DNA of 64,000 bases, taken from Paludibacteraceae bacterium (GTDB lineage: Bacteria; Bacteroidota; Bacteroidia; Bacteroidales; Paludibacteraceae). The position numbers and the translations under genes are program-made. The notes beneath the pieces are model-generated. The model had not been told where the DNA came from, did no database searches, and was given only the letters and a program-made list of their open reading frames with translations. Shown in pieces: positions 4,449 to 50,653 of this stretch; position 1 is the stretch's first letter, and each line of letters starts with the position of its first letter. Where the stretch lies: assembly GCA_045612525.1 (NCBI GenBank), contig JAZKZF010000023.1, positions 14,097 to 78,096 of the forward strand. The letters run 5' to 3'.

Positions 4449-4519
4449 GCGGCATTAGCACATCGGTAGTGCATCGGCTTCCCAAGCCGAGGAGGCGGGT
4501 TCGATTCCCGTATGCCGCT
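4449..4519 (+). tRNA. tRNA-Gly (anticodon CCC)
   Basis: Cloverleaf folded by hand. The acceptor is GCGGCAT/ATGCCGC, the D stem GCAC/GTGC, the anticodon stem TCGGC/GCCGA with loop TTCCCAA, and the T arm GCGGG-TTCGATT-CCCGT. It is 71 nt with no encoded CCA. Confidence 0.9.
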
Positions 4520-4523
4520 CTTG

Positions 4524-4554
4524 GTGAGGCGAGAGGCGAGAGGTTAGAGGCGGG
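4524..4554 (+). repeat. GAGGCGAGAGG / GGTTAGAGG array forming the tRNA-rnpB spacer
   Basis: The sequence is GTGAGGCGAGAGGCGAGAGGTTAGAGGCGGG. A 20-nt stretch (4533-4552) is identical to 10268-10287 inside sdaA. Confidence 0.7.
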
Positions 4555-4556
4555 AA

Positions 4557-4888
4557 TATATAGTGTATCGGTCTATCGCGGGATATGGGAAGAAAAGCGT
4601 ATTGCTTTAATCCCCTATTCCGAGGAAAGTCCGGGCAGCGTAGAGCACCACCGCGGTTAATGGCCGTCAGGCAGTGATGTTTGGTCCCTGCAAAAGAGAC
4701 GAGTAATCCTTAGGGAGGAAGTGATACGAGCATACGGTGGGCTGCAATTCCAAGTATACCGACGTTAGAGCGCTGCTCGCGCGAGTTGGAGGGTAGGAAG
4801 CGATAGAAGCATGTAGCAATACATTGCTCAAGATTAATGGTAGACGCCCTTATAGGGTACAGAACCCGGCTTATAGGTACACTATATA
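4557..4888 (+). ncRNA. rnpB: RNase P RNA, bacterial type A
   Basis: It carries the universal conserved regions GAGGAAAGTCCGGGC (4622-4636) and ACAGAACCCGGCTTA (4859-4873). The 5' TATATAGTGTA pairs with the 3' TACACTATATA (P1), and a T-run follows. The ends are approximate. Confidence 0.9.
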
Positions 4889-4931
4889 TTTTTATTAAGA
4901 TAAGTAATAAAAGAATAATCATAAAAAAGAC

Positions 4932-6883: not shown

Positions 6884-7270
6884 ATGTGCGAGCGCAAATC
6901 AACCATAGCCGGTTTAGCGAAAGGAGTGTATAAGGATAGAGGCAGCAAGTTTCTAGCTTTTGCCGAGCCCATCAATGATGAGGATGAGGCAAAAGCACGT
7001 ATAGCTTGGTATAAAAAGAAGTACCACGATGCTCGCCATGTCTGCTATGCCTATCGACTAGGCGAAAACCTTTGGCGCACGAAAGATGATGGCGAACCCC
7101 ATGGTACGGCGGGTATGCCTATTCTTCGCAGCATTGATGCGCAACAATTGGACAATATCTTGGTAGTGGTAGTGAGGTATTTCGGTGGAACACTACTAGG
7201 TACTGGTGGGTTGATGGTAGCTTATCGAGAGGCGACGAAAGAGGCGTTGAAGGATGCGATGAGGGTATAG
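6884..7270 (+). CDS. IMPACT/YigZ family protein, N-terminal domain only
   Basis: 128 aa with motifs [23 protein letters not shown] and [15 protein letters not shown]. It lacks the C-terminal domain of full-length YigZ. Confidence 0.7.
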
Positions 7271-7364
7271 GTGAAAGGTGAAAGGTGAAAGGTGAAAGGT
7301 GAAAAGTGAAAGGTGAAAGGTGAAAGGTGAAAAGTGAAAGGTGAAAAGTGAAAGGTGAGAGGTT
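7271..7364 (+). repeat. 13 tandem heptamers (9x GTGAAAG, 3x GTGAAAA, 1x GTGAGAG) plus GTT, filling the whole spacer
   Basis: Counted base by base. The array runs from the TAG stop (7268-7270) to the coaD ATG (7365). Confidence 0.95.
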
Positions 7365-15123: not shown

Positions 15124-16037
15124 TGATAAGAACAAGGAATAAGGAACAAGGAGTAAAGACAGCTAGACGAATAATTCTTATTTGTCTTGTTTCTTGGTTC
15201 TTGACTCCTGTATCTATCATGAGTCAAGTGTTATACCGCATATCGGGTAACTCGGCGCTCGCACCATCGTATATATTGGCCACCAATCGGATGGTGGATA
15301 TGCGGTTTATTGATACCATCCCGAATGCATTTAAGTGCTTTGCTGAGTGCGACAAAGTGATTACCGAATTTGCGATGCAAGACTACGAGGCGATAGCCGC
15401 CTTGCGTCAGGCAGCCCTCCTACCCGACTCAGTAAGATTGCGCAATTTTTATAGCGATGAGCAATATCAGGAGATAGACGAGAGTCTTCGCATTAATCTG
15501 GGTATGGGTTTGGACAAATTAGGTAGGATGAAACCTTCGTATTTGGCAGAGATGTATCGCAATGAATTGATGAAACGTTGGCTGAACTATGATGAAGAAT
15601 GTACGATGGAGACATTCTTTGAGAAGGTGGCTTTGCAAACGGATATACCGGTATTGGGATTGGATGATGTGGGCGAGACGATGTATATGCTATTTGACCG
15701 TGAGCCATTTCATTGGCAATGCGATGAACTACTGAAAGTGATAGAATATCCTGAGAAAGAAGTGCGTTTTGAACGCCAATTGGTGGAGATGTACAAATAT
15801 GGTCGTTTGGCTGATATGGCATATTTTGTGAAAGGACCTGACAACCAGACATCGCTATCGTACTCTGATTATCAGGTGTTTGCTAAACGTAATAAAGTAT
15901 GGGTGAAACGACTAACACCCTATTTGAAAGAGGGTAAAGCATTTATCACACTGAATGCCATCTATCTAGGAGGAGATGATGGATTGTTGGCGCAACTGAA
16001 AGCCGCAGGGTATCGAGTGAAGGCGGTGAATAAGTAG
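15120..16037 (+). CDS. TraB/GumN-like family protein (divergent)
   Basis: 305 aa. LYRISGN..APSYILATNRM aligns with the family motif LW.I....S.YLFGT.H, but the G and H positions are replaced. There is a 4-nt overlap with the TPR gene. Confidence 0.5.
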   Translation: MMIRTRNKEQGVKTARRIILICLVSWFLTPVSIMSQVLYRISGNSALAPSYILATNRMVDMRFIDTIPNAFKCFAECDKVITEFAMQDYEAIAALRQAALLPDSVRLRNFYSDEQYQEIDESLRINLGMGLDKLGRMKPSYLAEMYRNELMKRWLNYDEECTMETFFEKVALQTDIPVLGLDDVGETMYMLFDREPFHWQCDELLKVIEYPEKEVRFERQLVEMYKYGRLADMAYFVKGPDNQTSLSYSDYQVFAKRNKVWVKRLTPYLKEGKAFITLNAIYLGGDDGLLAQLKAAGYRVKAVNK

Positions 16038-16124
16038 GTTATAGGTTAGAGGTTAAAGGTTAAAGGTTAGAGGTTAAAGGTTAGAGGCAAGAGGTTAGAG
16101 GTTAGAGGTTAGAGGCGAGAGGTT
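16038..16124 (+). repeat. 12 tandem heptamers (GTTATAG, GTTAGAG, GTTAAAG, GCAAGAG, GCGAGAG) plus GTT, filling the whole spacer
   Basis: Counted base by base from the TAG stop (16035-16037) to the ATG (16125). The terminal GAGGTTATG junction matches the one at 7357-7367. Confidence 0.95.
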
Positions 16125-17189
16125 ATGGGTAAGATAGGTTCGTTCTTCAATCGCAATGCGTTGTCATTGGCCATGCTAGTAGGTGTGGTGGGTTGTTCTG
16201 TGTTTAGACATCTGACGTGGATGTTACCACCACTGATATTCCTAATGCTGTTCTTTACCTTCTGCAAGATTAATCCGCTTGATTTGAGATTGAGGAGATG
16301 GCATTGTGTAGTATTGTTGACGCAATTGCTACTGGGGATAGGACTATATTATGGACTACAAGTAATCGGCAATGAGGTGATAAGGCGATTAGGTGAAGGG
16401 GTGATAGGAGGAAACGATATTGCTATTATCTCACAGGGATTGATGCTGTGTGTGCTGATGCCAACGGCTACTGCGGCACCAATCATAGCTGGTAAACTAG
16501 GGGGAAGTATTCAAAATTTGACCTCATTCACGCTGTTAAGCAATATCGCTACGGCGATTATTGTGCCCGTATTCTTTCCGATAGTCAATCCGAGTGCGGG
16601 TATCGAGTTTGATGTTGCATGCTGGATGATACTCAAGAAGATTAGTCCACTATTGCTGGGACCATTCTTTGCAGCGTGGTTGTTGCGGATTGGCTATAAT
16701 GCATATCATCGCCATAAAGGTACGGGCAAGACATTTACCTTGTCTGCAAAATGGGCACCGATGCCATTCTACGTATGGGTAGTGACGCTGATTATCCTGA
16801 TGGCAGATTTGACCTATACTCTGATTCATCAGGAGTATAGCTACTGGACAATAGGTATCTTATGCGTGGGTTCGATAGGAACGTGTCTGTTGCAGTTTGG
16901 ATTGGGTCGCAGGATTGGTTTGCGTTTTCCTGCCACGACCAAGGGTGAGGATTATCATGATGTGCTTATCAATCCAGCTGCAGCGAATTATAGTATGGAA
17001 CAGGTGAGTCGTATCACAGCGGGGCAAGCCTTTGGACAGAAGAACACTACCCTAGCCATCTGGATGGCTCAAGCGTATCTCGTGCCTGTAGCATCGATGG
17101 CCCCTGCCGCCTATATCATTTGGCAGAATCTATTTAACTCGATTCAACTGAGTAGAGAAGGACGAAAAGCAAACAAAAAAGGAGCGTGA
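16125..17189 (+). CDS. bile acid:sodium symporter (BASS/SBF)-like membrane transporter
   Basis: 354 aa and polytopic. The segments MPTATAAPIIAGKLGG...LLSNIATAIIVP and GQKNTTLAIWMA resemble BASS core motifs. Confidence 0.55.
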   Translation: MGKIGSFFNRNALSLAMLVGVVGCSVFRHLTWMLPPLIFLMLFFTFCKINPLDLRLRRWHCVVLLTQLLLGIGLYYGLQVIGNEVIRRLGEGVIGGNDIAIISQGLMLCVLMPTATAAPIIAGKLGGSIQNLTSFTLLSNIATAIIVPVFFPIVNPSAGIEFDVACWMILKKISPLLLGPFFAAWLLRIGYNAYHRHKGTGKTFTLSAKWAPMPFYVWVVTLIILMADLTYTLIHQEYSYWTIGILCVGSIGTCLLQFGLGRRIGLRFPATTKGEDYHDVLINPAAANYSMEQVSRITAGQAFGQKNTTLAIWMAQAYLVPVASMAPAAYIIWQNLFNSIQLSREGRKANKKGA

Positions 17190-17201
17190 TGCTCCTTTTT
17201 T
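17177..17201 (+). terminator. intrinsic terminator overlapping the stop codon
   Basis: The stem is GGAGC-GTGAT-GCTCC with the TGA stop in the loop. An A-run precedes it and TTTTTTAT follows. Confidence 0.65.
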
Positions 17202-17204
17202 ATT

Positions 17205-17429
17205 GGTGTAAGGTGGAAGGTGAAAGGTGAAAGGTGAAAGGTGAAAGGTGAAAAGTGTATGGTGGATGGTGTATGGTGTAAGGTGTAAAGTGTAAAGGCG
17301 GGGCGGCTGAGCCGCAATTTCTGGGACTTTAATCTATAAACTATTATAACCTCTAACCTTTAACCTATTATAAACTATAACCTCTAGTCTTTAACCAATA
17401 ACCTATTATAACCTTTAACCTATAACCTA
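17205..17429. repeat. composite element: 13 GGTGnAn heptamers / GC core hairpin / inverted GTTAnAG-type array
   Basis: The left arm is 17205-17295. The core AAAGGCGGGGCGGCTGAGCCGCA is 17294-17316. The right arm is 17331-17429 and reads TAGGTTATAGGTTAAAGG.. on the minus strand, starting at the aminotransferase stop codon. Confidence 0.9.
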
Positions 17430-18632
17430 AACTAACTTAGCCAATGCCTCTTTCATGCGGCGCATAGCCTCGATGATAAGGTCTTCGCTGGTGGCATAGG
17501 AGAAGCGAATGCAGTTGTCTTCGCCAAAAGCACTACCTGATACGCATGCCACGTGTGCCTCTTGCAAGAGGTAGGTGACCAACTCATCGGCGTTGTGGAT
17601 GGTTTGTCCGTTGTATTGCTTACCAAAGAAGGCCGTGATATCAGGGAAGAGGTAGAATGCACCTTGTGGCTCAAGCACCTTCATACCAGGGATATCCTTA
17701 GCAAGTCCTACGATCAAGTTGCGACGACGATGGAAGGCTTGACGCATTTCCTCAACGCAGGCTTGTGGACCTGTGTATGCAGCTTCTGCAGCTTTTTGCG
17801 CGATGGTAGTGGCACAGCTGATGACTTGTCCTTGCAAGCGTTTCACTGCAGTAATCAAGTCTTTGTCATGGCTTGCCAACCATCCGATACGATAACCAGT
17901 CATGGCATAAGCTTTGCTGACACCATTGATGATAACGAGGCGGTCTTCGAGCTCAGGGAACTGTGCTAAGGTCTCGTGCTTGCCAGTATAGAGAATGTGT
18001 TGGTAAATCTCGTCAGCGAGCACAACCACTTGTGGGTGACGCTTGAGTACTTCTACTAATGCCTTGAGGTTGTCCAAAGTGTAAACGGAGCCTGTAGGGT
18101 TGTTAGGAGAGCAGAGCATTAGGAGTTTGGTAGCAGGAGTGATGGCAGCCTCGAGTTGCTCGGCAGTGAGGCAGAAATTGTTGTCCATCGTTGTTTTGAC
18201 GAGCACGCTCTTGCCTTGGGCAATCTTCACCATCTCTACATAACTTACCCAGCATGGTGTAGGCATGATGACCTCATCGCCGGGGCCAATCAATGCTTCG
18301 ATAGCATTGCAGATGGCTTGCTTAGCACCTACTGATACAACTATCTCGTTGGCATTGTATGGGCGCACAGGGTAATCCTTGATATCACGATTGAGTGTGT
18401 CGGCTATTGCTTGACGCAAAGCTGGGAAACCAGGTGTAGGACCATAATGTGAGATATCGTTGTTGATGGCATCAATAGCGGCTTGCTTGACATGTGCAGG
18501 AGCAGGGAAATCAGGTTCGCCCAATGAAAGACCAATCACATCTACTCCTTCGGCACGGAGTTGTTGGCACAAAGCAGCCACTTGCAAAGTAGCTGATTCT
18601 TCAAGTGCTGCAATACGTTGTGAAATCTGCAT
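17427..18632 (-). CDS. pyridoxal-phosphate-dependent aminotransferase (aspartate aminotransferase-like, class I)
   Basis: 401 aa with motifs NNPTGSVY and SKAYAMTGYRIGW (PLP lysine). Confidence 0.88.
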   Translation of the reverse strand: MQISQRIAALEESATLQVAALCQQLRAEGVDVIGLSLGEPDFPAPAHVKQAAIDAINNDISHYGPTPGFPALRQAIADTLNRDIKDYPVRPYNANEIVVSVGAKQAICNAIEALIGPGDEVIMPTPCWVSYVEMVKIAQGKSVLVKTTMDNNFCLTAEQLEAAITPATKLLMLCSPNNPTGSVYTLDNLKALVEVLKRHPQVVVLADEIYQHILYTGKHETLAQFPELEDRLVIINGVSKAYAMTGYRIGWLASHDKDLITAVKRLQGQVISCATTIAQKAAEAAYTGPQACVEEMRQAFHRRRNLIVGLAKDIPGMKVLEPQGAFYLFPDITAFFGKQYNGQTIHNADELVTYLLQEAHVACVSGSAFGEDNCIRFSYATSEDLIIEAMRRMKEALAKLV

Positions 18633-18682
18633 AAGTTGAGTGATGAATTATAAGTTATGAATTATGAGTTCTATTTTGGGTG

Positions 18683-18690
18683 CAAAGGTA
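18683..18690 (-). promoter_or_regulatory. -7 promoter box TACCTTTG for the aminotransferase gene
   Basis: The plus strand reads CAAAGGTA, about 50 nt upstream of the start at 18632. Confidence 0.55.
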
Positions 18691-19221
18691 GTGAAAATTT
18701 ATAAGATACGCAAATTTTTAGGGTACTATATACGAGTTGATAGAAAAAATTATCTCCTAGCCCTAATCGGGCAGAAATCTTATAAATCTAATTATTATCG
18801 CTTATTCCGCCCTGTTACGCGGTATTCCGTAATAAATTGCCACCGCTCCTTCGTCGAAACTGGCTTGCAACAATGAACTCACCTTCGTTCGTTAGGGTTG
18901 CCGCCGTTTCTCCTCTCCCCACTCGCTCACGAAGCTCGTGGGGGCCCCGATTGGAGCTCGTCGCTGAATCTTCAGTAAAATGTAGCGGAAGCAAAAACTA
19001 AAATGAGATTAGACAAAATTTTTAACGGCTAATTGGACGAATGGAACGAAGAAATGTTTAAGATAATTTATGTTGTATTTTTAAAACAAAAATACGGCAC
19101 AAGTGCCTACAAAAATATATATAAATCAAGAGATAGATTTTATTGGGGTTGAAAGAATGCGCTAGGCGCATTGGCAACCCACACAAAAAGAAGTTGTACG
19201 CCGAGAAGATAATGCATATTA

Positions 19222-19252
19222 TAAAAAAGAGAGTGCCGTAGCGACACTCTCT
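19222..19252 (-). terminator. intrinsic terminator of surface-protein gene 1
   Basis: On the minus strand, the stem AGAGAGTG/CACTCTCT is followed by a T-run. Confidence 0.7.
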
Positions 19253-19279
19253 AAGAATATAACTTGGAATAATTGCGAA

Positions 19280-20407
19280 TTATTCAATCACTTGACCTTG
19301 AGCGTTGAACTTAACGCCGTCCTTCAGGATAACCAATTGACCGTTCTCGAAGAACTTGGTGACGTTTTGGTTAACGGTTACGTTGTCGATAGCAGAAGGA
19401 GTACTTTCGTCTAAGATATAAATTGCAATAGGTTTTTGAGAAGCACTCGCGTAGCAAGAAAATAATGAACTATTTTGATTATATTGCATTACATTGCGAG
19501 TGTTCGTTCCTTGTGCGACAACAGAAGCCACACCATCTGTGATAGTAATTTCCCATGAAGAATTGTCAGACAACTCTTCTTGAGTTTTTAATTGATTGTT
19601 TGAAGAACTAGCTGCATAGAGATAACCTTCACCTGTATAGAATGCGAATGTGCCATCAATATTTCCTTCTTCAAGAGTCAACACTTGTACTTCGTCGTTG
19701 ATAATAATGGTATTGCCTTTTTTAGTAATAGCAACTTGTCCACGGTTATTATTGTTTTGTGTAGTACTCAATGCCATGTCAGACTCACTTGCAGCGATCA
19801 CCACTTGGTTGCCAATTTGTAAGTCAGCTACATCTGTAACTAAAACGAATACATCACCAGATATGGTAGGTTTATCTTCTTCATCTTCACCTTCGCCTGG
19901 TTGGTCATCACCTGGTTGGTCATCACCTGGTTGGTCTTCGCTTTCTCCATAAGATACAGCAACCGATTTTACATACAAAGCACACTTTGCTGATGACTGA
20001 GTCAACTTAACAACTATTTCACCGGTAGCATTGCCTTCGAATGTATATTCTGTAGCTACATTGGTCAGAGCAACTTCTGCTCCAAATGGATTACCACCAA
20101 CTGTCACATTTAATTTAGCTTTAGTATTTGATGCGCCCGAAGCATTAACTACAATCTTTTTTACAGGTTCAGTGATTTCGTCGGTAGATACTTGTAAGTA
20201 AGAAACCTCTTTTTTACCTGTACCATAGTGAATACCTTTTGTATTATCAAAATTGGATTCTGCGGCATCAGATGTAATAGTCCAAGCATTACCTTTGTCA
20301 TCAGTGCCAGCACCATCACATTGAGCAGTGAAGGTCAAAGTAGCAGTTTCTGCAAAACTCATCAAACTAATGAGCAGTGCGCTTAAAAATAAAGTAAACT
20401 TCTTCAT
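19280..20407 (-). CDS. secreted surface protein 1 (signal peptide, two beta-rich modules, acidic DQPG linker, conserved C-terminal tail)
   Basis: 375 aa. The leader MKKFTLFLSALLISLMSFA and the tail AIDNVTVNQNVTKFFENGQLVILKDGVKFNAQGQVIE are shared with the next gene. There is no lipobox Cys. Confidence 0.8.
   Translation of the reverse strand: MKKFTLFLSALLISLMSFAETATLTFTAQCDGAGTDDKGNAWTITSDAAESNFDNTKGIHYGTGKKEVSYLQVSTDEITEPVKKIVVNASGASNTKAKLNVTVGGNPFGAEVALTNVATEYTFEGNATGEIVVKLTQSSAKCALYVKSVAVSYGESEDQPGDDQPGDDQPGEGEDEEDKPTISGDVFVLVTDVADLQIGNQVVIAASESDMALSTTQNNNNRGQVAITKKGNTIIINDEVQVLTLEEGNIDGTFAFYTGEGYLYAASSSNNQLKTQEELSDNSSWEITITDGVASVVAQGTNTRNVMQYNQNSSLFSCYASASQKPIAIYILDESTPSAIDNVTVNQNVTKFFENGQLVILKDGVKFNAQGQVIE
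19896..19936. repeat. 15-bp tandem repeat CCTGGTTGGTCATCA (2 full copies plus a partial third) encoding (D)DQPG
   Basis: Read directly. It is an in-frame acidic linker repeat, DQPGDDQPGDDQPG. Confidence 0.85.
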
Positions 20408-25625: not shown

Positions 25626-25707
25626 ATTGGATGGTAATTGAGTGGTAACGGAATGGTAACGAAATGGTAACGTGAAAGAATGTAGAAAGGATGTAGAAAG
25701 AATGTAT
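25626..25707. repeat. short-unit arrays (ATGGTAAC-type x4, then GAATGTAGAAAG-type x2-3) abutting the SDR stop codon
   Basis: Read directly: ..GGATGGTAATTGAGTGGTAACGGAATGGTAACGAAATGGTAACG.. then AATGTAGAAAGGATGTAGAAAGAATGTA. Confidence 0.7.
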
Positions 25708-25709
25708 CC

Positions 25710-26537
25710 TTACTTCTGGAATCTTCCAACCAACTTAATCGCCAAGAATACCAACCAATCAGGCGTATGCTTGAGTAATGGTGTGCAGAGGTGGTTGATC
25801 ACGCCAGGCATATCGGCTTTCTTGCCACGGAACATCTTCTTGAGGGCACGTTTGACGAGTTTCTCAGGTGGGATAGCCACGGTCAAGTTCACCGCTAAGC
25901 GGCGCAAGTGAGGTGCTAAGCCAAAGAGTTCGGTATCTACAGCGCCAGGAGTCATCACAGTGATATGCACACCCTTAGGTTTGAATTCATACCAAAGCGA
26001 CTTGGAGAAATTGTAGATAAATGCCTTGGTGGCATTGTAGGTTTGGATGCCAGGCATAGCCATCCATGCAGACATAGACGACATATTGAGGATATAGCCC
26101 TTTTGGCGTGGTTTGCCACAGAGTTTTTGCGCTTGTTCTTCTGCTGTGAGTTGGCGGTTGATCATCTCCTCGCCAAAGAGGCGGGTGAGTTTGGCCACCG
26201 TGATCATATGCAAGTTGAGCATGAGCTCGATGCGCTTCATGCTGGTCTCGCAATAAGGGTTGAAGAAGAAGACGCCAGCGTTGTTGATGAGGATATCCAC
26301 GACAAGGTGGTTGTCCTTGCAGTATTGGAGCAACTGCTCCGCTGCATCTTGCTTGGAGAGGTCGGCATAGAGAGGAATGGTCTTTACGCCATATTGAGTA
26401 GCGAGGTCAGCAGCCACTTGTTGGAGTTCTGCTTCTTGGTTGCTAACCAACAGCAGATCGGTATGATAATCACGCGCGAGTTGGGTGGCATATTGGAGGC
26501 CAATACCCGATGAGGCGCCTGTTACTAAAGCTAACAT
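25710..26537 (-). CDS. short-chain dehydrogenase/reductase (candidate hydroxysteroid dehydrogenase)
   Basis: 275 aa with the Rossmann motif TGASSGIG and the catalytic motif YNATK. It is the last gene of the reductase operon. Confidence 0.85.
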   Translation of the reverse strand: MLALVTGASSGIGLQYATQLARDYHTDLLLVSNQEAELQQVAADLATQYGVKTIPLYADLSKQDAAEQLLQYCKDNHLVVDILINNAGVFFFNPYCETSMKRIELMLNLHMITVAKLTRLFGEEMINRQLTAEEQAQKLCGKPRQKGYILNMSSMSAWMAMPGIQTYNATKAFIYNFSKSLWYEFKPKGVHITVMTPGAVDTELFGLAPHLRRLAVNLTVAIPPEKLVKRALKKMFRGKKADMPGVINHLCTPLLKHTPDWLVFLAIKLVGRFQK

Positions 26538-26546
26538 ATATTTTTT

Positions 26547-26657
26547 AGTTGAAAGTTTAAAGTGTAAAGTTTAAAGGCAGGGCGGCTATGCCGCAGTACC
26601 TAGCCTATAACCTATAGCGTAGCGTCCTATAGCCTCAAAGAGGCGTCCTATAACCTA
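26547..26657. repeat. composite element: GTTTAAAG-type array / GC core hairpin / inverted CCTATAACC-type array
   Basis: The core AAAGGCAGGGCGGCTATGCCGCA (26573-26595) matches the core at 17294-17316 at 20 of 23 positions. The right end CCTATAACCTA contains the stop codon of the upstream gene. Confidence 0.85.
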
Positions 26658-27896
26658 CTTTTCAGGATACCACATTTGTTCGTACTTGAGGGCTTCCTTC
26701 TTGAGGTAAGCAGGGATGTCCTTGTCGCACTCGTGGCACTTCATATCGAGGGTGTACATACGCGCTACGCAGTAATTAGAGCGTTTGCACTCGGAGTGGT
26801 ATTGCTCCTCGCGCATCTTATTGACGAAGTCGGTGTCGCGTACGAGTGCGTGGCCTATTTGCACGAAGTCGAATCCTGCAGCGAGGGCAGTCTCGGCATT
26901 CTCACGTCCCATGACGCCACCGACATAGATGAGAGGCATCTTGAGCGCTGCGCGGAATTGCTTAGCTGTATCGAGGAAGAAAAGTTCTTTGAAAGGCACC
27001 GTAGGAATCATCAAGTGACCAACGAAGCGCAATGCAAGGCGTAGCCACCAGAAAGACCATGGGTTCATGTAGTGCGCCAGCCTCTTGATAGGCATAGCAC
27101 CACCCATGACGGTGAAAGGTGCCTTGCTGACAAAGCCTGCGGTGAGGACGAGAGCGTGTACGCCATGCTTCTCAATCTCTTGTGCGATGCGGATGCACTC
27201 CTCTACTTTGAGACCAGACTTGAAGCCGTCGTACATATTGGTCTTGACAACGACTGCCATATCGTCGCCTGCGTGCTCCATGACCTCAGCCATGACCTCG
27301 TTCATGAAACGCATGCGGTTCTCGAGCGAACCTCCGTACTCATCGCGACGGCGGTTGGTATATGGCGAGAGGAATTGTGAGATGAGATATCCGTGACCAG
27401 CGTGAATCTCCACGCAGTCGAAGCCACACTCACGGCAGAAATCCACGGCATGACCAAATGCCTTGACGATGTCTTTGATTTCCTCTTTCTTAAGCGCACG
27501 ATGGAGCGTTGGGGAATAGAGGTTGAAGCCGGTGCTGGCGCCTACTGGTAGGCAGTTGCAGGTATAGAAGTGGGTCATGTTGCCACAGTGACCGAGCTGG
27601 ATGCTGGCTTTAGCGCCTTCGGCATGGATACCGTCGGTGAGGCGCTTGAGGTCCTCTTTGATTTCGTCGTGGATATAGAGTTGACCATCGAAAGACACAC
27701 CTGAGCGAGTGACCGAGCAGTATGCTACGGTGGTCATGGCTGCCCCACCCCGTGCAACGGCGGTATGATAGTTGTAGAGATCTTGACTAGGTTTGTTGCC
27801 GTATGCCATATTCTCGAAAGCGGCACTACGTATAGCGCGGTTGCGCAGAGTGATTGGACCGAGTTTGTGCTCGGTGAAAAGGAGGTTATTGTTCAT
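26655..27896 (-). CDS. NADH:flavin oxidoreductase, Old Yellow Enzyme family (candidate 3-oxo-steroid ene-reductase)
   Basis: 413 aa with the OYE TIM-barrel signature HAGHGYLISQFLSPYTNRRRDEYGGSLENR and a C-terminal Cys cluster CKRSNYC...CHEC. Confidence 0.85.
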   Translation of the reverse strand: MNNNLLFTEHKLGPITLRNRAIRSAAFENMAYGNKPSQDLYNYHTAVARGGAAMTTVAYCSVTRSGVSFDGQLYIHDEIKEDLKRLTDGIHAEGAKASIQLGHCGNMTHFYTCNCLPVGASTGFNLYSPTLHRALKKEEIKDIVKAFGHAVDFCRECGFDCVEIHAGHGYLISQFLSPYTNRRRDEYGGSLENRMRFMNEVMAEVMEHAGDDMAVVVKTNMYDGFKSGLKVEECIRIAQEIEKHGVHALVLTAGFVSKAPFTVMGGAMPIKRLAHYMNPWSFWWLRLALRFVGHLMIPTVPFKELFFLDTAKQFRAALKMPLIYVGGVMGRENAETALAAGFDFVQIGHALVRDTDFVNKMREEQYHSECKRSNYCVARMYTLDMKCHECDKDIPAYLKKEALKYEQMWYPEK

Positions 27897-27997
27897 TGTT
27901 CAAAATTGTTCAATGTGGTTCAATGTTGTTCAATGTGGTTCAATGTTGAACGCGAAGCGCTGAACCATACTGAACAGCCTATAGGGCTATTGAACTA
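27897..27997. repeat. five 10-mers GTTCAATGTK / GC hairpin GCGAAGCGC / inverted TGAAC-containing arm
   Basis: Read directly. It fills the entire spacer between the 5-alpha-reductase-like stop and the OYE start. Confidence 0.9.
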
Positions 27998-28793: not shown

Positions 28794-28845
28794 TAGGCGA
28801 CTAGGCTATGAGGCGATAAGGCGATAGACTAGAAGCGAATTAGGG
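28794..28845. repeat. AGGCGA-type short-unit array in the leader of the reductase operon
   Basis: The sequence is TAGGCGACTAGGCTATGAGGCGATAAGGCGATAGACTAGAAGCGAATTAGGG. Confidence 0.6.
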
Positions 28846-38259: not shown

Positions 38260-38273
38260 TTTATTTATAAGGG

Positions 38274-38344
38274 TTTCCCACTAATAACACTGATTTTCAC
38301 TGATATTCCTTGTAATCCGTGTTCATCCGTGAAATCTGTGGGAA
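38274..38344. repeat. inverted-array element TTTCCCAC-(CACTGAT)n ... (ATCCGTG)n-GTGGGAA
   Basis: Read directly. A relative with the same TTTCCCACTGATT.CACTGATTT start lies at 47562-47615. Confidence 0.75.
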
Positions 38345-38355
38345 GCAATTAGTGT

Positions 38356-42692: not shown

Positions 42693-42694
42693 AT

Positions 42695-42750
42695 TTGGTG
42701 TTTAGTGAACGCCCTGCGGGCTACTGTTTAGTGTTTAGTGATTTGATTAG
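42695..42750. repeat. GTTTAGTG array / GCCCTGCGGGC hairpin / GTTTAGTG array
   Basis: It spans the whole 28-nt spacer and the last codons of cinA. The TAG stop is the CTA at 42721-42723. Confidence 0.8.
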
Positions 42751-45109: not shown

Positions 45110-45114
45110 ACTTT

Positions 45115-45185
45115 GTGTTTAGTGAACGCTGCGCTACTGTTTAGTGTTTAGTGAACGCTGCGCTACTGTTTAGTGTTTAGCGTTT
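45115..45185. repeat. 29-nt unit GTGTTTAGTGAACGCTGCGCTACTGTTTA x2 plus a partial third
   Basis: Read directly. It belongs to the same family as 42695-42750, contains the def stop codon (45177-45179) and ends 5 nt from the mntP start. Confidence 0.9.
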
Positions 45186-45785: not shown

Positions 45786-45851
45786 ATAGTGCGTGTATTG
45801 TGCGTGTATTGTGCGTGTATTGTGCGTGAATAGTGCGTGAATAGTGCGTGA
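45786..45851. repeat. six tandem 11-mers (ATAGTGCGTGT, ATTGTGCGTGT x2, ATTGTGCGTGA, ATAGTGCGTGA x2)
   Basis: Counted directly. It lies between the ruvX stop and the def start. Confidence 0.9.
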
Positions 45852-45859
45852 TTGATAGG

Positions 45860-47523: not shown

Positions 47524-47561
47524 ATTTATTAAAAGTTAAAAAGTTCTATACATTCTTATTA

Positions 47562-47615
47562 TTTCCCACTGATTGCACTGATTTCCTCTGATTATTATCG
47601 TGAGCTCAGTGGGAG
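47562..47615. repeat. inverted-array element TTTCCCACTG-(ACTGATT)n ... CAGTGGGAG
   Basis: The inverted ends are CCCACTG (47565-47571) and CAGTGGG (47607-47613). It is a relative of 38274-38344. Confidence 0.7.
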
Positions 47616-50250: not shown

Positions 50251-50653
50251 CTGCTTTTTTTTGATATGTGCAAATTTTTGTGCGTTTTTTTGAATTTTTC
50301 TTGTTTTTTGAAACTACCCTGATTTTTACCTTCATGCTCTTAAATCGCAAATTTATAGCCTTTTGACTCATTTTACCACACCTTACACATACTGCGCGTA
50401 CGCGCGTAAGGCTTTTTTATCAATAGGTAAATATGCCTTGCTAATAGCAGCCATTCAAGCGCTTACCCCTAGGTTATATCCTGCAACATAGCTGGTATAT
50501 TCAACGGCATGTTATCTTTTGCATTGTATAGGTTTGGTATAGGTGTAGTATAGGTTTGGTTGTAGCAAAAATTGGAATGCGACCAATCATAAATGACACG
50601 AGAAAGTATGTGCTTTTTTTTTAAAAAAATTTGGTTATTTGTAAATATTTTTG

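Follow-up and report, generated by a model that had tools for sequence, protein, structure and literature searches.

Results

Two heptamer arrays and a GC-rich hairpin lie between convergent genes

The window analyzed here is a 64,000-nucleotide stretch of contig JAZKZF010000023.1, from a Paludibacteraceae bacterium. At site 1 (17205-17429), a plus-strand gene and a minus-strand class I/II aminotransferase gene (ORF 17427..18632) converge on a bidirectional intrinsic terminator (17172..17204) consisting of an A-run, a GGAGC/GCTCC stem and a T-run. The terminator scan called this hairpin, including as a minus-strand terminator, and the same hairpin occurs in the orthologous loci L043-L054; it bounds the composite and is not part of the repeat family described below. 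The stop codon of the plus-strand gene (17187-17189) falls inside the terminator loop.

Immediately after the terminator, as a sequence-only reading of this DNA had proposed, come 13 GGTGnAn-type heptamers, all in phase (left arm, 17205..17292). Their G-rich strand is the plus strand and runs 5' to 3' toward the core in the order GGTGTAA, GGTGGAA, five copies of GGTGAAA, AGTGTAT, GGTGGAT, GGTGTAT, two copies of GGTGTAA, and AGTGTAA; TRF reported positions 17205-17298 as a period-7 array of 13.3 copies with 85% matches. The core follows at 17293..17331 on the plus strand ("top" orientation; 73.1 bits with covariance model R1). It comprises an outer-stem half, TAAAGGC (17293-17299), a GGG bulge, an inner-stem half, GCGGC (17303-17307), a TGA loop, the inner-stem partner GCCGC (17311-17315), a spacer, AATTTCTGG, and the outer-stem partner GACTTTA (17325-17331), which has one mismatch to the family consensus GCCTTTA. 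The GCGGC/GCCGC hairpin described earlier is thus present, but it had been drawn too short, the core including an outer stem that is in phase with the arrays. The core pattern AAAGGCGGGGCGGCTGAGCCGCA was found at 17294-17316 and in a second copy at 26573-26595, with 0 matches expected from 100 shuffles of the window.

The right arm (17332..17429) consists of irregular AGGTTAT/AGGTTAA-type heptamers whose G-rich strand is the minus strand. On the plus strand it appears as an AACCTnT-type array, and on the minus strand it reads TAGGTTATAGGTTAAAGG... and TAGGTTATAGGTTAAAGGTTATAA..., starting from the TAG stop codon of the aminotransferase (17427-17429). This starting point agrees with the previous description, but the array is less regular than that description implied: period 7 gave 66% matches and 14% indels in TRF, and a 31-nt higher-order unit present in 3.6 copies fits better. 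Across the window, period 7 was the sole enriched short tandem period (4 arrays, 320 bp), and no tandem arrays of periods 4-6, 8, 9 or 12 were found in it. Chance or artifact as the origin of the site-1 composite was ruled out by the shuffles and the tandem-period scan.

Since the terminator comes before the array and already contains the plus-strand stop codon in its loop, the simplest reading of the composite is as the 3' UTR of the minus-strand aminotransferase mRNA, lying ahead of the shared bidirectional terminator; this mRNA would end at hairpin 17172-17204. The proposal that each of the two convergent transcripts ends in a G-rich array is therefore unlikely for the plus-strand gene.

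The core is an asymmetric hairpin continued in phase by its arms

Alignment of 32 distinct copies defined a family core of ~40 nt. In 5' to 3' order, it consists of TAAAGGC, NGG, GCGGC, NNN, GCCGC, ATATTCYY and GCCTTTA. These segments form a 5-bp inner stem, whose 3-nt loop is hypervariable, and a 7-bp outer stem, the two being separated by an asymmetric internal loop (3 versus 8-9 nt) that is conserved. The unpaired ATATTC of the internal loop is conserved across the 32 copies. In this alignment, 19 positions are fixed by the search pattern, TAAAGGCNGGGCGGCNNNGCCGC, and the core alignment is therefore ascertainment-biased. The right half of the outer stem lies outside the pattern, and it pairs in 92% of cells compared with 30-46% for a slid partner. 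Over the 39-nt core of the 32 copies, the stems are paired in 95.6% of cells, so that the core is a short imperfect palindrome, able to fold into a stem-loop, of the kind (20-40 bp) that characterizes REP sequences. No compensatory substitutions or covariation were detected in the stems of these pattern-selected copies; covariation support is absent because the stems are invariant. Among the outer-stem variants, a comparison of G·U wobbles between strands rests on ~3 independent events, which are too few.

Model R1 recovered ~10 further variant copies in Paludibacteraceae loci (~30% more, within 8-kb flanks), and in three R1 variants (L035:5817, L012:890 and L031:84) both sides of the internal loop are AT-rich. 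No R1 copies were found in the metagenomic relatives searched (L041-L119). The family consensus, TAAAGGCTGGGCGGCnnAGCCGCATATTCTTGCCTTTA, carries neither a GTAG nor a CGTC tag. In Rfam searches, only tRNA-Gly and RNase P RNA reached the gathering threshold in the window, and a permissive scan of 17100-17500 returned only sub-threshold matches, all centered on or overlapping the terminator hairpin. A known RNA family as the identity of the element was ruled out, there being no Rfam match at the gathering threshold.

The arrays extend the outer-stem halves in phase, with TAAGGTG, TAAAGTG and TAAAGGC leading into the core on the left and GCCTTTA, ACCTTTA and GCCTCTA leading out of it on the right, and the 32-copy alignment contains in-phase conserved columns in both arms. 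Because the arrays continue the outer-stem halves in this way, the arms have opposite polarity, each G-rich strand running 5' to 3' at the core. The unit types found beside the core include AGTGTAA, AGTTTAA, AGGTTAA and AGGCGAG.

When folded in silico, site 1 forms a long imperfect hairpin on both strands, with energies of −77 and −67 kcal/mol, and is more stable than its shuffles (z = −3.6 and −4.2). This is not a property of the family: over the 32 copies, the median z was −1.2 for the top strand and −2.1 for the bottom strand, the arms alone gave a median z of −0.3, pairing no better than shuffled arms, and the whole element at site 2 gave z = 0. A long arm-arm hairpin as a family feature was ruled out by the last two values. 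Overall, structural conservation is confined to the core; between the arms there is complementarity of composition only, without in-register pairing. These results bear out the earlier statement that the arms are inverted and do not form a perfect long hairpin: their polarity is inverted, and they are not truly complementary.

The family is dispersed at low copy number in gut Paludibacteraceae

In a scan of one genome per species with the pattern TAAAGGCNGGGCGGCNNNGCCGC, 40 loci matched. Thirty-three of these are in Paludibacteraceae/Bacteroidales MAGs from the animal and human gut, and all 33 have heptamer arms; the remaining 7 are armless chance hits in other taxa, mostly of high GC content. 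The search of related genomes suggested by the sequence-only reading thus placed the core well beyond the two window sites, contrary to the first outcome that this reading had named as refuting it. The 33 family loci collapse to ~15 distinct gene contexts, and exact-pattern copies number ≤5 per MAG, the MAGs being incomplete. In the collections searched, the nearest relatives of the window are Paludibacteraceae MAGs at ~84% nucleotide identity (L022, RGIG906, cattle rectum). A phage origin was rejected, as the 5 core-pattern matches in viral contigs lack arrays, are mostly GC-rich and are attributable to chance.

An ORF is present on each side of 31 copies, and the two genes are co-directional in 30 of these, convergent in 1 (site 1) and divergent in 0, although counted by independent loci (~14) the lack of divergent pairs does not reach statistical significance. 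The convergent setting emphasized originally is therefore true of site 1 but is the exception in the family. In the co-directional copies, the whole spacer of 76-162 nt (~90-160 nt for almost all copies), which begins after the stop codon of the upstream gene, is filled, with a gap of 20-60 nt on each side of the core. Both orientations of the core relative to transcription occur, at roughly 10 versus 4 independent loci, and in the prfC-MFS spacer of L030 the segment between the outer stems is inverted compared with six orthologues. The flanking gene pairs include prfC/MFS, metX/thrA, tandem SGNH-hydrolase paralogues, ttcA/DMT, aroE/lipoprotein, manA/folA, DPP3/aroA and OYE/SDR. These genes are functionally unrelated, no pathway or regulon was found to be shared among them, and the other core-bearing gene pairs have no orthologues within the window. 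The genes downstream of core-bearing spacers include folA, thrA and aroA; because the spacers leave no space for a separate promoter of such essential genes, transcription presumably has to read through the element.

Inspection of the arms by eye revealed no promoter motif of the Bacteroidetes type, and a reading of the element as a Bacteroidetes −7/−33 promoter was dropped because TTTG...TAnnTTTG does not occur at a consistent position. An invertible promoter was likewise dropped, the ~25-nt segment between the outer stems looking too short.

The site-2 copy evolves far more slowly than synonymous sites

The second family copy in the window, site 2 (26538..26654, minus strand, with its core at 26572-26609), makes up the whole spacer between an OYE-type reductase gene (26655..27896) and an SDR gene (25710..26537), both on the minus strand. 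Between the window and the MAG locus L022, 116/117 positions of site 2 are identical, and identity to L005 is 0.93-0.94, whereas both flanking genes show a third-codon-position identity of only 0.48-0.74. The spacer is the most conserved 60-nt bin of the region. Its right arm is locus-specific and non-repetitive and is 98-100% identical across species whose synonymous sites have diverged by 26-39%; conversion from other copies therefore cannot explain the conservation of site 2. Similarly, between the tandem SGNH-hydrolase paralogues, the core is 95-100% identical compared with 0.42-0.46 at third-codon positions. Array length, in contrast, changes fast: between L025 and L040, spacer identity is only 0.69 while third-codon positions are 0.85-0.89 identical. 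Overall, where it is present, the core (and at site 2 the whole element) evolves far more slowly than synonymous sites. This conservation is at the level of sequence, which a purely structural RNA role would not require.

The element is absent or replaced at orthologous loci of relatives

In all 12 syntenic orthologues of site 1 that were recovered (L043-L054, L057; 72-82% protein identity), the gene pair and the terminator are kept, whereas the core and the long arrays are absent. Alignment of the filled site with the empty sites revealed no target-site duplication at site 1, and the element has no defined ends or terminal inverted repeats there. No strain-level alleles of site 1 were found, and the exact window proteins are without a database record.

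The OYE-SDR spacer was sampled through OYE homologues, so that the core sequence played no part in the selection. In some relatives this spacer contains only CTAAACA heptamers; in L126, it is a different 120-nt filler of 10-mers and mini-hairpins; in L129, it consists of three 117-nt tandem repeats; and in other relatives the genes overlap or are separated by 1, 6 or ~26 nt. The element is therefore dispensable at both window loci in related species. With respect to whether the architecture is conserved among relatives, a point on which the sequence-only reading had staked its case, the site-1 orthologues speak against it and other loci for it. Within this dispersed, low-copy repeat family of gut Paludibacteraceae, the copy at site 1 is unusually large and specific to its lineage.

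Heptamer arrays also occur without a core

Two arrays in the window lack a core, and each fills its spacer from stop codon to ATG on the plus strand. AGGTGAA × 13.6 (7269..7364) lies between a UPF0029 gene and a cytidylyltransferase-like gene, and its unit type matches the distal part of the site-1 left arm. AGGTTAG × 12.9 (16036..16125) lies between a TraB/GumN-family gene and a gene for a 354-aa protein, and its unit type matches the G-strand of the site-1 right arm. The window has 41 intergenic regions of more than 15 nt, and tandem repeats of 7-11 nt, often with small GC hairpins, were present in ~15 of them (about a third). Period 7 also dominates in ~0.65 Mb of related contigs, where its arrays, at a density of 5-8 per 100 kb, belong to many different unit families. 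Heptamer arrays abut stop and start codons exactly, and among core-less arrays that separate co-directional genes the G-rich strand is the sense strand in 19 cases versus 4. These arrays thus have the features of intergenic heptanucleotide repeats, namely, an excess of period 7 beside start and stop codons, a bias in orientation, and a copy number or presence that varies between relatives.

Discussion

The anatomy, distribution and constraint of this family are solid; its function is inferred. With moderate confidence, we favor a reading in which the element is an intergenic hairpin of REP-like type, specific to its lineage, and in which slippage has lengthened the outer stem into heptamer satellites. 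Replication slippage of the outer-stem heptamer would make the arms longer or shorter. The core may have reached new spacers by copying between spacers that contain heptamer arrays, with array homology serving for ectopic conversion or template switching, or with some enzyme doing the copying. The element would be co-transcribed with the upstream gene, and in RNA the GC-clamped stem-loop, if it acts at all, would most likely be, like REP/BIME, a barrier that affects stability or processing at 3' ends and between cistrons rather than an efficient terminator. At site 1, the aminotransferase mRNA would carry it as a structured 3' UTR in front of the bidirectional terminator that the two genes share.

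Alternatively, the hairpin may be recognized by a putative protein. Because the sequence of the internal loop is conserved and both orientations are tolerated, a putative lineage-specific protein that recognizes the hairpin as DNA or RNA is likely. It is a good deal less probable, and in our view unlikely, that the core is the recognition hairpin of a lineage-specific nuclease, transposase or RNA-binding factor that both copies the element and seeds the in-phase arrays. If so, such a "hairpin-seeded satellite" would represent an undescribed class among bacterial intergenic elements. In a wider sense, a large share of the intercistronic spacers of gut Paludibacteraceae would then be built from selected 7-11-nt tandem units and mini-hairpins that organize polycistronic mRNAs independently of Shine-Dalgarno sequences.

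Several other explanations have to be weighed against the favored REP-like hairpin. The family could be a non-autonomous mobile element of the REPIN or MITE type, cut and pasted or copied by a dedicated transposase (RAYT/IS200-type HUH) that recognizes the asymmetric hairpin, in which case the sequence conservation would reflect the needs of the transposase. Identical asymmetric cores at ~15 unrelated loci, the conserved unpaired ATATTC, presence or absence at orthologous loci and the occurrence of both core orientations all point in this direction. We nevertheless consider it doubtful, because comparison of site 1 with empty sites revealed neither defined ends nor terminal inverted repeats nor a duplicated target, the GTAG/CGTC tag is lacking (compare PMC3733652), exact copies number ≤5 per MAG, and the cores are single, not paired. 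No IS200-like ORF was found in the ~0.85 Mb examined, which is a weak test that used an approximate IS200 TnpA query in tblastn on genome fragments. The functional part could instead be the heptamer arrays, serving as single-stranded RNA or DNA to which a protein of the Csp/S1 type (OB fold, footprint of ~7 nt) binds, or as Shine-Dalgarno-like AGGUGA repeats that tune the translation or stability of adjacent cistrons, with the hairpin a mere spacer or insulator. The 19 versus 4 sense bias of the core-less arrays and their exact abutment on stop and start codons are consistent with this, and there are precedents both in the TAACTGA repeats upstream of start codons, for which Csp and S1 proteins have been proposed as binders (PMC4679880), and in the GGGNATC repeats, which are transcribed in the sense orientation just after stop codons (PMC4692102). 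However, the units differ widely both between loci and between species at one locus; G-rich and C-rich polarities both occur directly upstream of ATGs; length is not conserved (spacer identity of 0.69 in L025 versus L040, with third-codon positions at 0.85-0.89); and conservation is highest in the core rather than in the arms. This role for the arrays is thus rather unlikely.

It is also conceivable, if improbable, that the elements are functionless by-products of slippage-prone heptamer DNA that accumulates wherever it is tolerated, with nothing but gene conversion from copy to copy maintaining the core. Close relatives can do without the element, and their spacers have been replaced wholesale, ~1/3 of the window intergenic regions contain 7-11-nt tandem repeats, and heptamers are the commonest class of long simple sequence repeats in prokaryotes, attributed to polymerase slippage (Mrazek 2007, as cited in PMC4679880). 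What decides against this explanation is the site-2 right arm, which conversion cannot explain, being 98-100% identical despite 26-39% synonymous divergence. An intrinsic (Rho-independent) terminator is a GC-rich stem-loop directly followed by a U-run, and the core could be a bidirectional terminator of this type, the composite then being a pair of terminator-proximal 3' UTRs, close to the picture given by the sequence-only reading. The core is a GC-rich stem-loop with a partly U-rich 3' flank on the top strand (AUAUUCUU in the family consensus), and site 1 does lie between convergent genes. However, the inner stem has only 5 bp, and no U-run follows: the sequence after the core is AAUUUCUGG on one strand and CCNGCCUUUA on the other. 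Moreover, the terminator scan calls only 17172-17204, site 1 already has a canonical terminator, and 30/31 copies lie between co-directional genes (folA, thrA and aroA among those downstream) in spacers too short for a separate downstream promoter. A terminator is accordingly very improbable. Least probable of all, and barely credible, is action of the G-rich arrays through a two-tetrad G-quadruplex of GG-N5 repeats: this is suggested by analogy with the GGGNATC repeats that occupy the same genomic positions in Xanthomonas and Nostoc (PMC4692102), but the units here have GG, not GGG, many family arms have a single G (AGTTTAA), and there is no preference for four units.

To our knowledge, little is known about the punctuation, stabilization and processing of polycistronic mRNAs in Bacteroidota, a phylum largely without Shine-Dalgarno-guided initiation. 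Here is an uncultured gut lineage in which ~1/3 of the intergenic spacers consist of 7-11-nt tandem units and small GC hairpins, and in which one hairpin family is constrained beyond neutral expectation yet gained, lost and inverted between species. If the family acts in RNA, it would make regulation within the operons of gut Bacteroidales accessible to study; if it is recognized by a dedicated enzyme, it would extend REPIN/RAYT-like symbioses between host and element to a new phylum. In MAGs, such arrays are likely to be assembly breakpoints, strain markers and hotspots of spacer turnover.

Comparison with known systems

The sequence-only reading had likened the composite to REP/BIME or MITE-like elements. 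The family does behave as a REP-type dispersed intergenic palindrome, but defining marks of both REP/BIME and MITEs are missing from it. MITEs (e.g. Correia, ERIC and RUP) have discrete terminal inverted repeats, a defined length and a target-site duplication. Like them, the family is a small, non-coding, palindromic intergenic insert that is presumably co-transcribed with its neighbors and is polymorphic between relatives. Unlike them, it has no discrete terminal inverted repeats, target-site duplication or fixed length, and its arms are expandable satellites: at site 1, no duplicated target was found between filled and empty sites, and the arm arrays are variable, with spacers of 76-162 nt. 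Integron attC sites are imperfect palindromes with RYYYAAC/GTTRRRY core sites at the 3' ends of cassettes, which form an array next to intI. They came into question solely through the co-directional setting and the filling of whole spacers, and they were rejected as an identity because the copies here are dispersed singly between housekeeping genes and the array motifs GTTAAAG and GTTAGAG fail the final Y of GTTRRRY.

REP sequences are extragenic, lie mainly downstream of genes and seldom between divergent ones, and usually number >100 copies per genome, although families of 20-100 or fewer exist. A REPIN is a mobile unit of two inverted REPs, BIMEs are mosaic clusters, and the cognate RAYT gene, encoding an IS200/IS605-like Y1 transposase, is flanked by repeats. 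The core resembles REP in being a short imperfect GC-rich palindrome that is dispersed and extragenic, mostly downstream of genes in co-directional or convergent settings (30 co-directional, 1 convergent and 0 divergent of the 31 copies). It also shares the occurrence of both orientations, probable transcription, a lineage-specific consensus and presence or absence at orthologous loci. The REP, BIME and REPIN of Proteobacteria are GTAG- and CGTC-tagged palindromic repeats (PMC3733652, PMC3116915), with the conserved unpaired tetranucleotide at one end (PMC3733652), whereas the family described here has no such tag. It further differs from REPIN and BIME in having one core per spacer and no inverted pairs, and from REP in an inferred ~5-10 copies per genome versus tens to thousands. 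Its outer stem is extended by in-phase heptamer satellites, for which we found no description in REPs, and in contrast to the proteobacterial hosts of REP it resides in Bacteroidota. No RAYT was identified in the ~0.85 Mb examined. By analogy, REP/BIME/REPIN is the closest functional analogue for the core.

For the arrays, known intergenic heptamer repeats include the cyanobacterial STRR heptamers, reportedly described by Mazel in 1990. MacGregor (2015, PMC4679880) notes that heptamers dominate the long simple sequence repeats of prokaryotes (citing Mrazek 2007) and describes TAACTGA direct repeats in intergenic regions of Beggiatoaceae, Cyanobacteria and five Bacteroidetes, among them Paludibacter propionicigenes. 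These repeats, like those found here, are tandem 7-nt units that fill the last nucleotides before starts, are biased in orientation, vary in length and are absent from relatives at the same locus. Unlike them, the units here are heterogeneous (AGGTGAA, AGGTTAG, AGTGTAA, AGGCGAG and others), and two arrays of opposite polarity flank a conserved hairpin, whereas PMC4679880 mentions a single "indirect repeat" in its abstract, and its available text describes no hairpin core. The G-rich GGGNATC heptamers of Xanthomonas and Nostoc, located just after stop codons (Rehm 2015, PMC4692102), have GGG tracts, a four-unit preference consistent with G4 formation and no hairpin core, compared with the GG or G tracts and up to 13 units of the arrays here. 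As the sequence-only reading had surmised for Bacteroidota, neither Rfam nor the searchable literature yielded an account of this family or of any hairpin core that carries heptamer arms in phase. REP-like hairpins and intergenic heptamer repeats are thus each known already, and what is new is their combination, a hairpin core that carries in-phase heptamer arms.

Repeat arrays and hairpin modules in other spacers of the window

Tandem repeats were detected in about 15 of the 41 intergenic regions of the window, and their units are not confined to heptamers. At four intergenic sites (45789-45854, 25631-25706, 50526-50560 and 28795-28826), the arrays consist of 11-mers (GTGCGTGTATT x6; ATGGTAACGGA x3.8 followed by GAAAGAATGTA x3; GTATAGGTTTG x3.2) or of an 8-mer (AGGCGATA x4). 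Further, the spacer between two co-directional genes is filled by a composite (27897-27997) that has the array/hairpin/inverted-array architecture of the site-1 family but is built from other components, namely five GTTCAATGTK 10-mers, the mini-hairpin CGCGAAGCG, inverted TGAAC units and a second hairpin, AGCCTATAGGGCT.

A second module, in which an AGCG-NA-GCG(T/G)(T/C)C mini-hairpin lies between A/C-rich units (CACTAAA, TCTAAC), was found in the window at 45110-45176, 42693-42720 and 26616. Mini-hairpins of the GCGAAGC type are extra-stable. With ∼40 sites in 0.85 Mb of sampled loci, this module is more widespread than the family core, the ∼40-nt double-stem hairpin; it is present in the aminotransferase 3' UTR of three loci (L046-L048), and in distantly related Bacteroidales (L114-L119) it again occurs in spacers. 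In addition, the small repeat TTTCCCACTGATnnCACTGATTT is common to two window spacers (38273-38350 and 47561-47596) and has an inverted partner (...CTGTGGGAA) at the first of them.

Arrays next to RNA genes and within paralogue clusters

The 39-nt gap (4521-4559) between tRNA-Gly(CCC) (4449-4520) and RNase P RNA (4560-4889) is filled by GGTGAGGCGAGAGGCGAGAGGTTAGAGGCGGG heptamers, which suggests that the two RNAs are co-transcribed across the array. At a locus from another genome (L017), a family copy likewise lies directly 3' of a tRNA gene.

Four MAG loci (L001, L023, L026 and L031) contain tandem arrays of paralogous secreted proteins of about 370-400 aa, which by eye look like SGNH/GDSL-type hydrolases. 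Every inter-paralogue spacer at these loci contains the family core or a heptamer array alone; the element has thus been carried along by gene duplication.

Spacer turnover and unusual neighboring sequences

Among relatives, turnover of the spacer between the OYE-type reductase and SDR genes is extreme, despite OYE proteins that are 83-99% identical: the spacer consists of three tandem ∼117-nt units in L129 (4246-4681), of CTAAACA heptamers only in L130 (2232-2267) and of an entirely different 120-nt filler of CTGAAGATCG 10-mers and the hairpins GGCCTGCGGCC and GGGCTGAAGCCC in L126 (1621-1740). Compared with L130 and L126, the window OYE-family reductase (26658-27896) has a protein identity of 96-99% and a DNA identity of only 79-82%, with synonymous sites near saturation and the protein almost frozen, which amounts to unusually strong purifying selection.

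Upstream of the aminotransferase gene, co-directional genes are separated by an unusually long spacer (18633-19279, 647 nt) with no ORF of at least 100 aa and no Rfam match, which may represent either a degenerated gene or an RNA missing from the annotation. It contains a AAATTGCCACCGCTCC string that recurs in L048, where it lies 3' of the 354-aa gene. The 375-aa ORF at 19280-20407, which has no Pfam match, contains a perfect 15-nt x2.7 tandem repeat of CCTGGTTGGTCATCA (19896-19936); as 15 nt is a whole number of codons, translation would yield a repeating unit of five residues.

Heptamer satellites outside Bacteroidota

Intergenic heptamer satellites turn up sporadically in unrelated phyla, as in Deinococcus antarcticus (L014), in which (GATGGTT)n heptamer arrays adjoin a chance match to the core.
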